Source: Methylobacter marinus A45
GTDB taxonomy: Bacteria; Pseudomonadota; Gammaproteobacteria; Methylococcales; Methylomonadaceae
Length of the DNA stretch: 64,000 nt
NCBI RefSeq assembly: GCF_000383855.1
Contig: NZ_KB912877.1
Coordinates: 3,328,282 to 3,392,281 of the forward strand
Reading direction: 5' to 3'
This document shows positions 14,241 to 17,360 of the stretch, in pieces. The first letter of the stretch is position 1. The number at the start of each line of letters is the position of its first letter. The notes under the pieces are model-generated. The model did not search any database. It saw nothing but the letters and a program-made list of their open reading frames with translations, and was not told the DNA's origin. The position numbers and the translations under genes are program-made.

Positions 14241-14810
14241 TCAGGCGTGTTCTAACTCCTGGCATAAGCGAAAACGCAGCCAGGCATCGATGCTCAACCG
14301 TCCGGCACCGCTGAACAATAACGTGGTCAGCATCAACAAGTACATTAGCGGTAGTTTGAAATTGCCGTGACCCTGGTCTGTGATAGCGTAACCTTTCCAT
14401 AACTCGACCAGAGAATGCCATTCGACAGGCCAGTGCACAGCGGCGATAGCCACTATAGTCAGCATCATCAATGCGGCGCTGAAGAACCGGGTCATAAAGC
14501 CCAGGATTAGCGCAAGCGGGGCGATGATCTCCAGGCCTGTCGCCAGGGTCCAATTGACATCGGCAGTTAGCAAATTGAAGGGAAATGGAAAGCTCAAATC
14601 GGCAAACCAGTTTTCACCATTGAGCTTTTCCAGACCGGCTTCGCCAAATTCATAAGCCAGCAGCAATCTCGGAAAAACCGGCGCCAGGCCATGCGCGTTG
14701 CGGTCAAACCAGCAGGAAAGCCTGCCCGGTAAGGCACAAACCTGTTGGATGCCGGATGAAATAAGGTTGGCAGAGCGGTTACCATAGTAGGATGTCGTCA
14801 GATTGTTCAT
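14241..14810 (-). CDS. DoxX-family inner-membrane protein (HvfD-like, fourth gene of the operon)
   Basis: 189-aa ORF with multiple hydrophobic helices ([47 protein letters not shown]). Its start overlaps the upstream DUF2063 gene by 4 bp. Confidence 0.6.
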
Positions 14811-15586
14811 GAGTAATGCTCCGGATGACTTGTGGGGCGGACGCCGATGATAGCGCCTTGGTGGTGTAAATCGAGCAGTGTATTCAGACCGAATCGGGTT
14901 AATTCTATAAACTGCGCATTCGTCAGCTCGCCTCTCATCGCCTGCAGGGCCTGTTCGCCGGTCAGGCCGTTATTTAACAGCTCGATCAAATAGGCCGTGG
15001 CCGGATTGAGGGCGATGAACCGTACCTGCTCGTCGCTGTCGCAAAAGCCGAGGATATGGGTGGTCGCAGCGGGCGGTTCAGTAGGCAGAGCGTGAGGGCC
15101 GATGTCCTGCACCGGCCACTGGTAGTGCAGCAACTGCATGACCGGCGCAAAAACAATTGTGCCGGATAGTAATTGCTCGCGGGTCAGTGGTGTGATCGTG
15201 ATCGGTTCACTCTCGGCGATCGACAGCTGCAGTTCGATCCACTCGAAGTGCGCAAGCTCTGCCAGGAAGGGTAAATCATCGGCTCGATCGCGTTCCTGTT
15301 GCAGATATTGCACGAATTCATCAGGAATCTGCCGATAATACGGGGTCAGGCAGCGATGTCCGGCGATGAAATCCAGCAGCAATGACCGCCAGTCAGCTGG
15401 CGACAGGATACGGTGAATGGCTGGAAAGCAGGCCGTCAGACTTTCGTCGAATTTGTTGTAGAGCAGATCGGCATACACGGCCAGGCGTTCCGGCGCAAAG
15501 CCGGCGGGAATCTGTGTGGTTTGCGGCTGACGCAAGTAATGCAACAATTGCCGTTGCTGTTGTTGAAATAGCGGTGTCTGGTTCAT
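14807..15586 (-). CDS. DUF2063-family protein (HvfC/MbnC-position partner of the DUF692 enzyme)
   Basis: 259-aa ORF overlapping the DUF692 gene by 4 bp. It shows the DUF2063 pattern ([32 protein letters not shown]). Confidence 0.7.
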
Positions 15587-16455
15587 GCGGCCGCCCCCTT
15601 GATGTCATCCGCGTTGCGGCAATATAGATGGTGCTTTTGCAAGGCACGTATGCGCTCAACTTCCGTCAACAATTCGGCCAGCGGCGGAATGTTGCTATCG
15701 CGCTCAACTAAAGTCGGAAACACGCCAAAGCAGCGATAGGCTTCAGCCAGCAAGTCCCACACCGGCTCGATAGTGTTCTGACCGTGGGTGTCGATAATCA
15801 ACCCGGAAGGCTCCCTATCATGGCCGGCGACATGCCCGTAGACGATGCGCTCGCCCGGCAAGCCACGCAAAAACGCCACCGGATCGTAGCCGTGATTGAC
15901 ACTGTTGACGTATATGTTGTTGACGTCCAGGTGCAGATGGCAATCAGCCTCGGTCAATACGGCGTTGATGAAAGTCAGCTCGTCCATCTCCGCCTGTGGC
16001 GGCTGAAGGTAGTACGAGGCATTCTCCAGCGCGATGTGCCGCTCGAGAATATCCTGAGTCTGACGAATGCGACCGGCAACATGCCTGACCGCCTCACTGG
16101 TAAATGGAATTGGGTATAAGTCATACAACTGTCCTTCGTCGCTGCAAAAACTCAGATGCTCGGTGTACAAGGCAAAATCGTGATGAGCGAGAAACTGTTT
16201 TAGCTCGCTTAAAAACGCGGTATCAAGCGGTGCCGGACCGCCCAGCGACAACGCCAGACCGTGCGCCACGAAACGATGGCGCTCGGTCAGGCGGCGAAAC
16301 TGCTTGCCCAACTGACCGCCGACGCCCACCCAGTTTTCCGGCGAGACTTCGAAAAAATCGATGTTGCCCGGCATACCGGCTTGTAGCGCCGGCAACAGCG
16401 CGCGGCGCAATCCTAGACCGGAGCCGGCCAGACCAAATGGATTGGAGGTGATCAT
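15583..16455 (-). CDS. DUF692/UPF0276 (MbnB/HvfB-like multinuclear non-haem iron oxidase, TIM-barrel)
   Basis: 290-aa ORF with the DUF692 hallmarks GLGLRRAL, IDFFEVSPENW, LALSLGG and HIALENASYY, a xylose-isomerase-like fold signature. Confidence 0.85.
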   Translation of the reverse strand: MITSNPFGLAGSGLGLRRALLPALQAGMPGNIDFFEVSPENWVGVGGQLGKQFRRLTERHRFVAHGLALSLGGPAPLDTAFLSELKQFLAHHDFALYTEHLSFCSDEGQLYDLYPIPFTSEAVRHVAGRIRQTQDILERHIALENASYYLQPPQAEMDELTFINAVLTEADCHLHLDVNNIYVNSVNHGYDPVAFLRGLPGERIVYGHVAGHDREPSGLIIDTHGQNTIEPVWDLLAEAYRCFGVFPTLVERDSNIPPLAELLTEVERIRALQKHHLYCRNADDIKGAAA

Positions 16456-16474
16456 CGGCGGTTACTCCGGCTTA

Positions 16475-16831
16475 CTACTCGGTTTTGGCGCCGCAACCGC
16501 CTTCGGTCATCTTGCCGCTACAGCCGGCTTCCGGCATTTTGCCGCTGCAACCGCCTTCGGCGCCTTTCATCTTGTTGGCGCCGCATTTGCCTTCACCGCA
16601 CTTACCTTCAGCCACTTTGCCGCTGCAACCGCCTTCAGCGGATTTATCATCGGCGGCCGCCAATTGTTGAGATTGGTTAATGCTGGACATCGCAAACGGA
16701 TTTTCGCCGGCTTGAATAGCGGGCGCTGTGCTCAGCAATGTCGAAGCCAGGGCGCTGCTCAAAGTCAGGGATAAGGTTTTTTTGTTCATCAAGGATTCTC
16801 CAAGGGTTTGATATGTGATCAGGACAAGCAA
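16475..16831 (-). CDS. DUF2282-like secreted Cys-rich precursor protein (HvfA-like substrate of the DUF692/DUF2063 pair)
   Basis: Signal peptide (LSLTLSSALASTLLSTAPAIQA) followed by repeated E-G-x-C-(S)G-K units: EGGCSGKV, EGKCGEGKCG, EGGCSGKM, EAGCSGKM, EGGCGAK. The EGKCG repeat is the DUF2282/HvfA signature. Confidence 0.75.
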   Translation of the reverse strand: MLVLITYQTLGESLMNKKTLSLTLSSALASTLLSTAPAIQAGENPFAMSSINQSQQLAAADDKSAEGGCSGKVAEGKCGEGKCGANKMKGAEGGCSGKMPEAGCSGKMTEGGCGAKTE

Positions 16832-16867
16832 CAGTGCCTTCCTGCCCTATCAGTCGAGGCGTTTTTT

Positions 16868-17360
16868 TAATTTTCCATCATAAGGTTTAAACCACCGGCT
16901 TTAGCCGGTCAGCTTTAGCTGCGATAATCTGGCCAAGGCGGTGGCAATGGACTATAGATATGGCAGCCATACGGTTTATCAAATTGAGTACCATTTTGTT
17001 TGGGTAACCAAGTATCGTTACAAAGTGCCGAGTGGTGAAATAGCAGAGCGAGCAAGAGACTTGGTGCGCCAAACCTGCGAAGCGTTTGAGATACGAATTA
17101 TAAAAGGCGTAGTGAGGAGGAGTTTCCGCACTTGAAGAAAGCGGTACTGGAGAAGACATTTTTGGGCGCGCGGTTATTTTTGCGCCACCGTTGGCCAGAT
17201 GACCGATGAGATGATCAAACAGTATTGGAGCATCACTTTGAACCTAGTCCAAACGATAATTTTAAAATGGCGCCTGATTAAGACGCGTCGTTTAGTCGAC
17301 GCGTATCCGGACTTTCAGTCCATTATTCGAACCCACCCGCTTGAGCGGGTGGTTGTTTAG
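16868..17360 (+). mobile_element. Degenerate IS200/IS605-family element (copy 1) with internally deleted tnpA and terminal hairpins
   Basis: This ~493-bp block is identical to 54781-55273. It has a left subterminal hairpin (accggctttagccggt) and a right hairpin (cacccgcttgagcgggtg). It encodes the N-terminal HuH motif region of the Y1 transposase (HTVYQIEYHFVWVTKYRY) and, in another frame, the C-terminus (RKRYWRRHFWARGYFCATVGQMTDEMIKQY); the central ~50 codons are missing. Confidence 0.7.
16941..17135 (+). pseudogene. tnpA: IS200-family tnpA remnant (frameshifted/internally deleted)
   Basis: 64-aa fragment MAMDYRYGSHTVYQIEYHFVWVTKYRYKV. The C-terminal tnpA motifs continue in a different frame after the deletion point. 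Confidence 0.65.

Follow-up and report, generated by a model that had tools for sequence, protein, structure and literature searches.

A recent IS200-derived insertion in the predicted ECF sigma factor promoter of an Hvf-type peptide-modification operon of Methylobacter marinus A45

The hvf operon and its precursor

The window analysed here is a stretch of 64,000 nucleotides (64 kb) from the genome of Methylobacter marinus A45 (contig NZ_KB912877.1). It harbors an operon of the Hvf type (hvfA, hvfB, hvfC and hvfX), the operon of an extracytoplasmic function (ECF) sigma factor located upstream of it, and, between the two, a defective mobile element of the IS200/IS605 family. As set out below, this element appears to split the promoter of hvfA, the gene of the precursor peptide. 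According to the list of open reading frames (ORFs), four co-directional ORFs are tightly packed on the minus strand between 14241 and 16831; the last three overlap by 4 nt, and 19 nt separate hvfA from hvfB. They encode the precursor, a multinuclear non-haem iron oxidative enzyme (MNIO), its partner protein with a recognition element for ribosomally synthesised peptides that carry post-translational modifications (RiPPs), and a membrane protein:

16475-16789, minus strand: hvfA-like precursor, 104 residues, with a signal-peptide-like N-terminus, an ENPF/AAAD region and six cysteines
15583-16455, minus strand: hvfB, MNIO (formerly DUF692), 290 residues
14807-15586, minus strand: hvfC, MNIO partner protein with a RiPP recognition element, 259 residues
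14241-14810, minus strand: hvfX, DoxX-family membrane protein, 189 residues, the final gene of the operon, its start overlapping the hvfC stop by 4 nt

HvfB matches PF05114 (MbnB_TglH_ChrH, formerly DUF692; E 3.5e-101) in Pfam and NF003818, the HvfB-family MNIO maturase, in NCBIfam (409.3 bits, cut-off 360); its scores against the NCBIfam models of BufB, ApyH, ChrH and MbnB all lie under the respective cut-offs. Its closest sequence match in the PDB is 3bww, a DUF692 protein (1.7e-75). HvfC possesses the domains PF09836 (DUF2063, 6.1e-21) and PF22106 (NGO1945_C, 1.2e-18) and is recognised by NF050145 (RiPP_RRE_HvfC, 243.3 bits, cut-off 142). HvfX, whose DoxX-family membership is a feature of such clusters, matches PF07681 (DoxX, E 4e-16) and NF050144 (HvfX family, 133.3 bits, cut-off 80). 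The NCBIfam models for HvfB, HvfC and HvfX are of equivalog level and were judged by their own cut-offs. Family assignment thus supports an Hvf-type MNIO peptide-modification operon of the HvfA / Buf_EGKCG-oxazolin cluster type. Operons of this kind are already catalogued, and NCBI annotation models name all four proteins.

The original prediction, made from the sequence alone, had recognised the four-gene minus-strand operon (ORFs at 16475-16831, 15583-16455, 14807-15586 and 14241-14810) and had labelled three of its products as DUF692, DUF2063 and DoxX proteins; the profile searches (PF05114, PF09836, PF07681) agree with it on both counts. It had also likened the organisation to that of the Haemophilus hvf locus, which holds for gene content but not for gene order, A-B-C-X here and X-A-B-C in H. 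influenzae (PMC11252979).

The precursor begins at the ATG at 16789 (MNKK...), which is preceded by a GGAG 8 nt upstream and is the position at which all aligned homologues begin. The TTG at 16831, which opens the listed ORF of 118 residues, was considered and rejected as a start on the same alignment, and the 118-residue product first proposed is better read as 104 residues. By inspection, the N-terminus consists of MNKK, a hydrophobic stretch and AIQA followed by GENPF; Pro23 and Ala27 are invariant in 15 homologues. The mature precursor carries six cysteines, as had been counted before, each within an E-[GA]-[GK]-C-[GS] motif, with a single canonical AEGKCGEGKCG. Aligned homologues share one plan: the signal-peptide-like N-terminus, ENPF, AAAD-K, EGGCSGK, EGKCGEGKCG, EGGCSG, E-GCSGK and EGGCSGK.

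A database search retrieved 199 homologues of the precursor, largely from methanotrophs (Methylococcales), several of which NCBI names "HvfA family ... RiPP metallophore"; none of the 120 homologues listed has a Pfam domain. The precursor itself passes marginally the model NF050137 (KCGExKCG_twice, HvfA family oxazolone/thioamide-modified RiPP metallophore; 20.6 bits, cut-off 19.5) and fails the strict HvfA equivalog NF050188 (20.9 bits, cut-off 95). Pfam searches at E<=0.01 and E<=10 returned neither DUF2282 (PF10048) nor any credible family. DUF2282 corresponds to the Buf1 bufferin family, and the HvfA-type Buf_EGKCG/oxazolin precursors form a separate family without a Pfam model, numbering ~2,000 precursors, for which a new profile had to be built (PMC12452194). 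By these sequence matches, the precursor would belong, marginally, to the HvfA / Buf_EGKCG family and not to DUF2282/Buf1. It had been announced as a DUF2282 protein, a label that has to be given up. The lack of a DUF2282 hit had also been named in advance as fatal to the whole assignment; the hit is indeed lacking, but the test was mis-specified, and the Hvf assignment stands.

The mobile element and its empty site

The element and its surroundings are as follows:

16872-17360, plus strand: IS200/IS605-family non-autonomous deletion derivative, 489 bp, with a transposase remnant antisense to hvfA
16863-16871, plus strand: target sequence TTTTTTAAT, abutting the left (transposase-proximal) end of the element and also part of the hvfA promoter spacer
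54785-55273, plus strand: second copy of the element, identical at 489 of 489 positions (blastn, 503 aligned bases with 1 mismatch, located in the flank)

A protein identical to HvfB is encoded on a contig (L001) of assembly GCA_000746145.1 from Methylobacter sp. BBA5.1, for which the name M. whittenburyi BBA5.1 is also in use (PMC4722281, PMC12662621). Over ~13 kb, this contig and the window share 99.0-99.7% DNA identity, and the element is their only structural difference. On the hvfA strand, the sequence of the empty site is ...TTTTGTAAGGA^ATTAAAAAAACGCCTCGACTGA..., and the empty allele is also found on contigs from SRR4051945 (L002) and SRR29904083. The Hvf proteins of L001 and L002 are identical to those of the window. 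The filled allele has been seen independently in the Logan contig SRR067917 (L003), which starts 21 nt inside the element and is 100% identical to the window; given this contig and the identical second copy of the element, an assembly artefact was rejected. Since the empty allele occurs in a strain 99.0-99.7% identical across the locus, the comparison proves at the sequence level that an IS200-derived element was inserted upstream of the precursor gene. The event is dated as recent by sequence identity, because the window has kept its hvf coding sequences intact, with no difference from BBA5.1, and because the two copies of the element are identical.

Comparison of the filled and empty alleles sets the borders at 16872 and 17360, ambiguous by 1 nt, which makes the element 489 bp long; the target is not duplicated. 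Pieces of a transposase are found on the plus strand at ~16941-17250; they match PF01797 (Y1_Tnp, E 3.4e-11) and positions 1-54 and 95-123 of the 126 of NF033573. The IS200 origin first proposed is thereby upheld; the size then given, 493 bp, becomes 489 bp, and the distance of 37 bp to the precursor becomes 82 nt to the ATG, or 40 nt to the TTG. Relative to full-length relatives of 142-143 residues, ~35 residues are gone, including the HUH (HVH) motif, and the remainder is broken by a stop and frameshifts. The element therefore lacks the intact Y1 HUH transposase that defines an autonomous IS200/IS605 element, and is unable to move by itself.

For IS200/IS605 elements, insertion takes place 3' of a fixed short target that adjoins the left end, and their non-autonomous deletion derivatives are mobilised in trans by a Y1 HUH transposase. 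The ends of the present element display this family signature. Subterminal hairpins are located at about 16892-16909 and 17333-17352, and terminal inverted repeats are absent. The latter hairpin is GC-rich with an 8-bp stem, and when read in the hvfA direction is beaten in stability by 1 of 200 shuffles (z -3.2); neither hairpin is followed by a U-run in that direction. The 9-mer TTTTTTAAT recurs at 54776-54784, beside the left end of the second copy, and is uninterrupted in the empty site of BBA5.1, and the right flank of both copies is TC on the transposase strand. The element thus resembles known non-autonomous IS200/IS605 derivatives in its subterminal hairpins, in its lack of inverted repeats and target duplication, and in having identical copies that share one internal deletion. 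It differs from them in retaining about two thirds of the transposase frame, which points to a recent deletion derivative and not to a minimal, hairpin-only element.

A tblastn search with the transposase remnant found the two defective copies of the window, none in 82 related loci, and no autonomous partner in either; an exact-protein look-up of both element ORFs in public assemblies returned no record. The second copy is inserted in a divergent intergenic region, next to the ORF of a sigma54-type activator (53608-54639, minus strand). A Logan protein of 107 residues (P0142) is another IS200 transposase, 82% identical, whose central part with the HUH region is deleted in a similar way. HUH-less deletion derivatives may circulate as a lineage instead of having a single origin.

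The sigma operon and the predicted promoter split by the element

Upstream of the element lies the sigma operon, and the two halves of the predicted hvfA promoter are found on either side of the element:

18954-18980, minus strand: intact promoter motif TGTAAGGTTTCATGCTGTTCTTGCGAC before the sigma operon, matching the Neisseria-type consensus
18093-18716, minus strand: ECF sigma factor, 207 residues (TIGR02943, 220.8 bits, cut-off 162.2; Sigma70_r2 and r4_2 matches)
17900-18100, minus strand: short cytoplasmic ZAS-type anti-sigma factor, 66 residues (NF052368 antisigmaE, 77.2 bits, cut-off 50; PF13490 zf-HC2)
17670-17894, minus strand: cysteine-rich protein with a GDCCVxC domain, 74 residues, the last gene of the sigma operon (NF041374, 107.3 bits, cut-off 40)
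17361-17368, minus strand: TGTAAGGA, orphaned -35 of the predicted hvfA promoter, moved 489 bp further from the -10
16850-16856, minus strand: CGACTGA, orphaned -10 of the predicted hvfA promoter, 63 nt from CGAC to the ATG

The GDCCVxC gene is also called with 74 residues in BBA5.1. Counted on the translation, the anti-sigma factor carries Cys4, His30, Cys34 and Cys37, the positions found in Neisseria MseR/NMB2145 (PMC2893595); MseR needs Cys4, Cys34 and Cys37 (PMC2893595). In Neisseria, sigmaE autoregulates an operon comprising a DoxX gene, three genes that had no annotation at the time, rpoE and the gene of the ZAS anti-sigma factor MseR, and its consensus consists of a -35 GTMAGBWTT, a spacer of 12-13 nt and a -10 CGTCTAAH (PMC2893595). 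This consensus was reached via the Neisseria gene names; a literature search pairing TGTAAGG with ECF or sigma returned nothing relevant.

BBA5.1 shares TGTAAGG-N16-CGACTGA between the upstream regions of the sigma operon and of hvfA. Its intact hvfA promoter reads TGTAAGGAATTAAAAAAACGCCTCGAC, that is, TGTAAGGAAT-N13-CGACTGA in the empty allele, 63 nt before the ATG. Set against the Neisseria consensus, the motif before the sigma operon is GTAAGGTTT-N13-CGACTGAA and that before hvfA (empty allele) GTAAGGAAT-N13-CGACTGAT, the -10 being CGAC and not CGTC. The full motif occurs once in the window, at 18954-18980, for 0.05 expected by chance. Among related loci, 79 were fetched with HvfB and 49 could be scored for GTAAGG-N15-17-CGAC within 200 nt upstream of hvfA. 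The motif is present in 26 of the 49, against a background of 0.01 per 200 nt, and these 26 loci belong to Methylobacter, Methylomonas, Methylovulum and Methylomicrobium. In 25 of them, 61-78 nt separate the -10 from the start codon; in the remaining locus, the distance is 102 nt. Because it matches the Neisseria sigmaE consensus and because the anti-sigma factor has MseR-like Cys/His positions, the motif is read as a putative sigma-dependent promoter of hvfABCX.

The insertion point lies directly after GTAAGGA, between the -35 and the -10 of this promoter. At the junction, GTAAGGAAT is replaced by ATGGAAAAT, in which the GTAAGG core is matched at 1 of 6 positions. No substitute promoter of the ECF or sigma70 type was detected on the minus strand over 16780-17700. 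The same start of the spacer, AATTAAAAAA, is found in M. luteus (L004) and in Methylobacter sp. sgz302048 (L005). From the aligned alleles, the element splits a conserved predicted ECF-sigma promoter and does not lie downstream of it. The original prediction had placed it between the start codon and the promoter region; it is instead inside the promoter, with the -35 upstream and the -10 downstream. That native regulation was altered by the insertion, as also proposed there, is very probable, given the split seen by sequence comparison. Most likely, hvfABCX would have lost direct sigma-dependent initiation at hvfA and would now be silent or transcribed by read-through only.

Many Methylobacter genomes (L023-L034, L039, L042, L044 and others) possess a second, divergent hvf cluster, whose HvfB and HvfA are ~72% and ~60% identical to the proteins of the window; it has no GTAAGG motif, and a different ECF sigma factor (~50% identity) lies downstream. 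No paralogous hvf cluster was found within the 64-kb window. As other Methylobacter genomes have two clusters, a redundant one elsewhere in the genome of the window strain is possible.

In Methylotenera (Betaproteobacteria; L056, L058-L061, L063-L068, L072), TGTAAGG-N15-CGAC is found at ~4130-4200 of the loci, in the 3' end of the sigma gene and immediately before the ZAS anti-sigma gene. Its position points to an internal promoter; hvfA lies ~400 bp further downstream.

Neighboring relics and flanking genes

Two gene relics are found around the sigma operon:

17513-17656, plus strand: relic of an HD-domain gene (HD_5/HD-GYP-type), 47 residues; in relatives, the gene is divergent from hvfA
18710-18916, minus strand: relic of a PHO4/PiT-family transporter, a 68-residue N-terminal stump directly behind the sigma-operon promoter

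The 47-residue ORF joins, in frame, the first 9 and the last 47 residues of a 298-residue HD-domain protein of Methylomonas (L011; BLASTP 70% identity, E 1e-20), which matches PF13487. In Methylomonas and M. luteus, the full HD-domain gene diverges from hvfA and carries a TGTAAGG...CGAC motif of its own; the -35 of the relic in the window has decayed to GATGAGG. The 68-residue ORF is 49% identical to the first 39 residues of a 371-residue protein of the same Methylomonas locus (BLASTP, E 1e-7), which matches PF01384. There, the sigma gene comes after the transporter gene (314-1429) and a SAM methyltransferase gene (1449-2492), two genes that the lineage of the window has lost. The two relics are shared with BBA5.1. 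The regulon is eroding in the window/BBA5.1 lineage, and the insertion of the element is the latest step. In three other loci (L022 at 8233, L006 at 7966, L010 at 8477, plus strand), the motif precedes genes for a secreted DUF547 protein and for a 715-residue fusion of DedA with a FAD disulfide oxidoreductase. Together, the DUF547, DedA-FAD, PiT, SAM methyltransferase and GDCCVxC genes are a hint that the regulon extends beyond copper, to metal(loid) or thiol stress.

Immediately downstream of hvfX, a type VI secretion effector/immunity island occupies ~9584-13947 (8509-12873 on the BBA5.1 contig). It harbors genes for VgrG, DUF4123, PAAR and a Colicin-DNase/WHH toxin. Two SUKH/SMI1 immunity paralogues, arranged in tandem at 11942-12529 and 12576-13154, are ~79% identical in DNA. 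A D123-like gene (13147-13947) follows the paralogues.

Proposed function and comparison with known systems

The H. influenzae Hvf products were described in 2024 as oxazolone/thioamide groups (PMC11252979). The same laboratory and others have since reassigned the HvfBC products to 5-thiooxazoles, formed by a mixed-valent diiron HvfB with HvfC being required; the loss of 4 Da per cysteine and the binding of Cu(I) are unaffected by this reassignment (bioRxiv 10.64898/2026.07.17.739211). For oxazolin, a UV chromophore at ~302 nm has been reported. Of the chemistry given in the original prediction, oxazolone/thioamide is therefore superseded and the -4 Da per cysteine still stands. By family membership, the Methylobacter peptide would be modified as in H. 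influenzae.

In the proposed model, transcription of hvfABCX would natively start from the ECF promoter 63 nt upstream of the ATG. The neighboring sigma factor would read this promoter and drive its own operon via the same motif, and a redox- or thiol-sensitive, MseR-like anti-sigma factor would keep it inactive. HvfA would be produced with a Sec signal peptide, and the diiron MNIO HvfB, together with HvfC, would turn the six cysteines of the E-G-x-C-G/S motifs into 5-thiooxazoles (-4 Da each, up to -24 Da for the peptide) before or during export. The exported peptide may then bind Cu(I) in the periplasm, with HvfX (DoxX) as a membrane accessory protein of unassigned role. The transposase-dead element, mobilised in trans, would have landed beside its preferred target TTTTTTAAT, which is the promoter spacer.

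The H. influenzae hvf locus (NTHI1440-1444; PMC11252979, bioRxiv 10.64898/2026.07.17.739211) shares with the present one the four protein families HvfA, HvfB, HvfC and HvfX, a precursor with a signal peptide (putative in Methylobacter), six modifiable cysteines in EGKCG-type motifs, and the expected 5-thiooxazole formation and Cu(I) binding. Its precursor, however, has three canonical repeats, whereas the Methylobacter one has a single AEGKCGEGKCG and four E-G/A-G-C-S/G-G-K variants, and lacks the two N-terminal disulfide cysteines. The Methylobacter locus is moreover linked to an ECF sigma/anti-sigma pair, and belongs to a free-living methanotroph, not a pathogen.

With the rpoE-mseR operon of Neisseria (NMB2140-2145 / NGO1943-1948; PMC2893595), the locus shares the ECF sigma type, the short ZAS anti-sigma factor with Cys4/His30/Cys34/Cys37, the promoter grammar GTAAGGxxT-N12-13-CGxC, and, by prediction, autoregulation and the control of DoxX and NGO1945-type (HvfC_C) genes. 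The Neisseria genes form one operon under a single promoter, whereas in Methylobacter the sigma operon and hvfABCX each had a copy of the promoter, the hvfA copy being now split. These sequence features point to a regulation of the Neisseria sigmaE/MseR type.

The bufferins Buf1 (DUF2282) and Buf2 of Caulobacter and other bacteria (PMC11626156, PMC12452194) are periplasmic RiPPs with signal peptides, as predicted for the Methylobacter peptide, and are modified by closely related MNIO/DUF2063 pairs. They carry thiooxazoles and buffer copper, as the Methylobacter peptide would, and often have DoxX and ECF sigma genes nearby. In contrast, the Methylobacter precursor is devoid of DUF2282, HvfB fails the BufB model (255 bits, cut-off 310), and the anti-sigma factor is of the ZAS/MseR type, while Buf1 clusters have one of the NrsF type.

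Weighing the interpretation

The explanation that best accounts for the whole locus is an hvfABCX operon with a dedicated ECF sigma/ZAS pair, whose hvfA promoter has been split by a recent IS200 derivative; we give it a probability of roughly 0.7. Several points weigh against it. The function of the hvfA promoter is drawn from comparative sequence and from the Neisseria precedent, and 23 of the 49 scored loci have no motif, most of them belonging to the paralogous hvf group or to Methylotenera, where the motif lies further upstream. In a simple scan, the minus strand showed no terminator from the sigma operon's end (17670) to hvfA, so that hvfABCX could still depend on the same sigma factor through read-through from the intact sigma-operon promoter. 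The precursor is marginal on the HvfA-family model and has a single canonical AEGKCGEGKCG repeat, and modification of all six cysteines is an extrapolation. Copper is the metal that we infer for the operon; the genes found behind the same motif in relatives, among them those of a PiT-like transporter, a SAM methyltransferase and a disulfide oxidoreductase, would fit a broader metal(loid) or thiol-stress response too.

The strongest competitor, a real but distinctly less probable one, is that the insertion is neutral or nearly so, sigma-dependent transcripts from the 18954-18980 promoter reading through the GDCCVxC gene, the 47-residue relic and the element in antisense. All features along this path lie on the minus strand as such a transcript requires, no terminator-like site was found on that strand in a scan of 16400-19100, and the two hairpins of the element are without U-runs. 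The deletion in the HD-domain gene has also brought the sigma operon to within ~300 nt of the hvfA promoter, and in Neisseria hvf-like genes and rpoE are on one transcript (PMC2893595). However, the relatives and the empty allele retain a separate, well-conserved promoter before hvfA, which argues that read-through is insufficient. Moreover, the stable hairpin at 17333-17352 (z -3.2) could attenuate transcription, and Rho-dependent termination is plausible across ~800 nt of untranslated RNA.

Somewhat less probable still is that the operon serves a stress other than copper (thiol, oxidative, or another soft metal(loid)), copper binding being incidental. The redox-relevant cysteines of the ZAS/MseR-type anti-sigma factor are in line with this proposal, as are the msrAB genes of the Neisseria regulon (PMC2893595) and the co-transcription of a GDCCVxC (seleno)protein with the sigma factor. 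The company of the motif in relatives, where it precedes genes of a PiT transporter, a SAM methyltransferase, a DUF547 protein and a DedA-FAD disulfide oxidoreductase, goes in the same direction, and MerC fusions with a possible bufferin role for other metals have been described (PMC12452194). The characterised members, the H. influenzae oxazolin and the Caulobacter bufferins, nevertheless all bind copper and protect against it, and Neisseria sigmaE is not induced by oxidative stimuli (PMC2893595).

It is very improbable that the TGTAAGG...CGAC motif is the operator of another DNA-binding regulator, in which case no promoter would have been split. In its favor, no methanotroph is known to have a mapped transcription start site, and the -35 is devoid of the AAC typical of many ECF promoters. 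Against it stand the two blocks at a fixed gap of 15-16 nt, at 61-78 nt from -10 to start codon (102 nt once), which also precede the operon of the sigma gene itself; they fit the -35, spacer and -10 of Neisseria sigmaE, for which a start site downstream of the -10 has been mapped at gonococcal msrAB (PMC2893595). Finally, a DUF2282 precursor with the element downstream of an intact promoter can practically be dismissed: Buf1 precursors do adjoin closely related MNIO/DUF2063/DoxX genes in other bacteria (PMC12452194), but PF10048 is missing here even at E<=10, no listed homologue has a Pfam domain, and the -35 and the -10 stand on opposite sides of the element.

Significance

The operon itself is routine, and what it brings at the family level is a correction: HvfA-type precursors are not DUF2282 proteins. 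What is new is the conserved predicted ECF promoter of hvfA and its splitting by the element. This promoter links the hvf clusters of methanotrophs to the experimentally characterised promoter grammar of Neisseria sigmaE/MseR, and its motif is a ready-made predictor of the regulon in bacteria whose copper homeostasis controls methane oxidation. Weaker than the long shot set out below is the idea that, through the preference for TTTTTTAAT, this A/T-rich spacer is a hot spot of repeated insertion in the M. marinus/luteus group. The window strain and BBA5.1 form a natural pair that differs at the locus essentially by a 489-bp promoter-splitting insertion, and offer a cheap test of the role of the peptide.

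In a published genome-mining study, several methanotrophs, the gamma-methanotrophs Methylomicrobium album BG8 and Methylococcus capsulatus Bath among them, proved to be without methanobactin operons, and its authors concluded that any chalkophore of these organisms has to be the product of enzymes that are only distant relatives of MbnBC (PMC3621798). A literature search for bufferins or oxazolins in methanotrophs retrieved no study of hvf clusters in gamma-methanotrophs, and such clusters are present in Methylobacter, Methylomonas, Methylovulum and Methylomicrobium genomes. It is a long shot, but gammaproteobacterial methanotrophs could in general handle copper with Hvf-type thiooxazole peptides controlled by a dedicated ECF sigma factor. 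If so, the near-isogenic pair would test the effect of the peptide on the copper supply to particulate methane monooxygenase.

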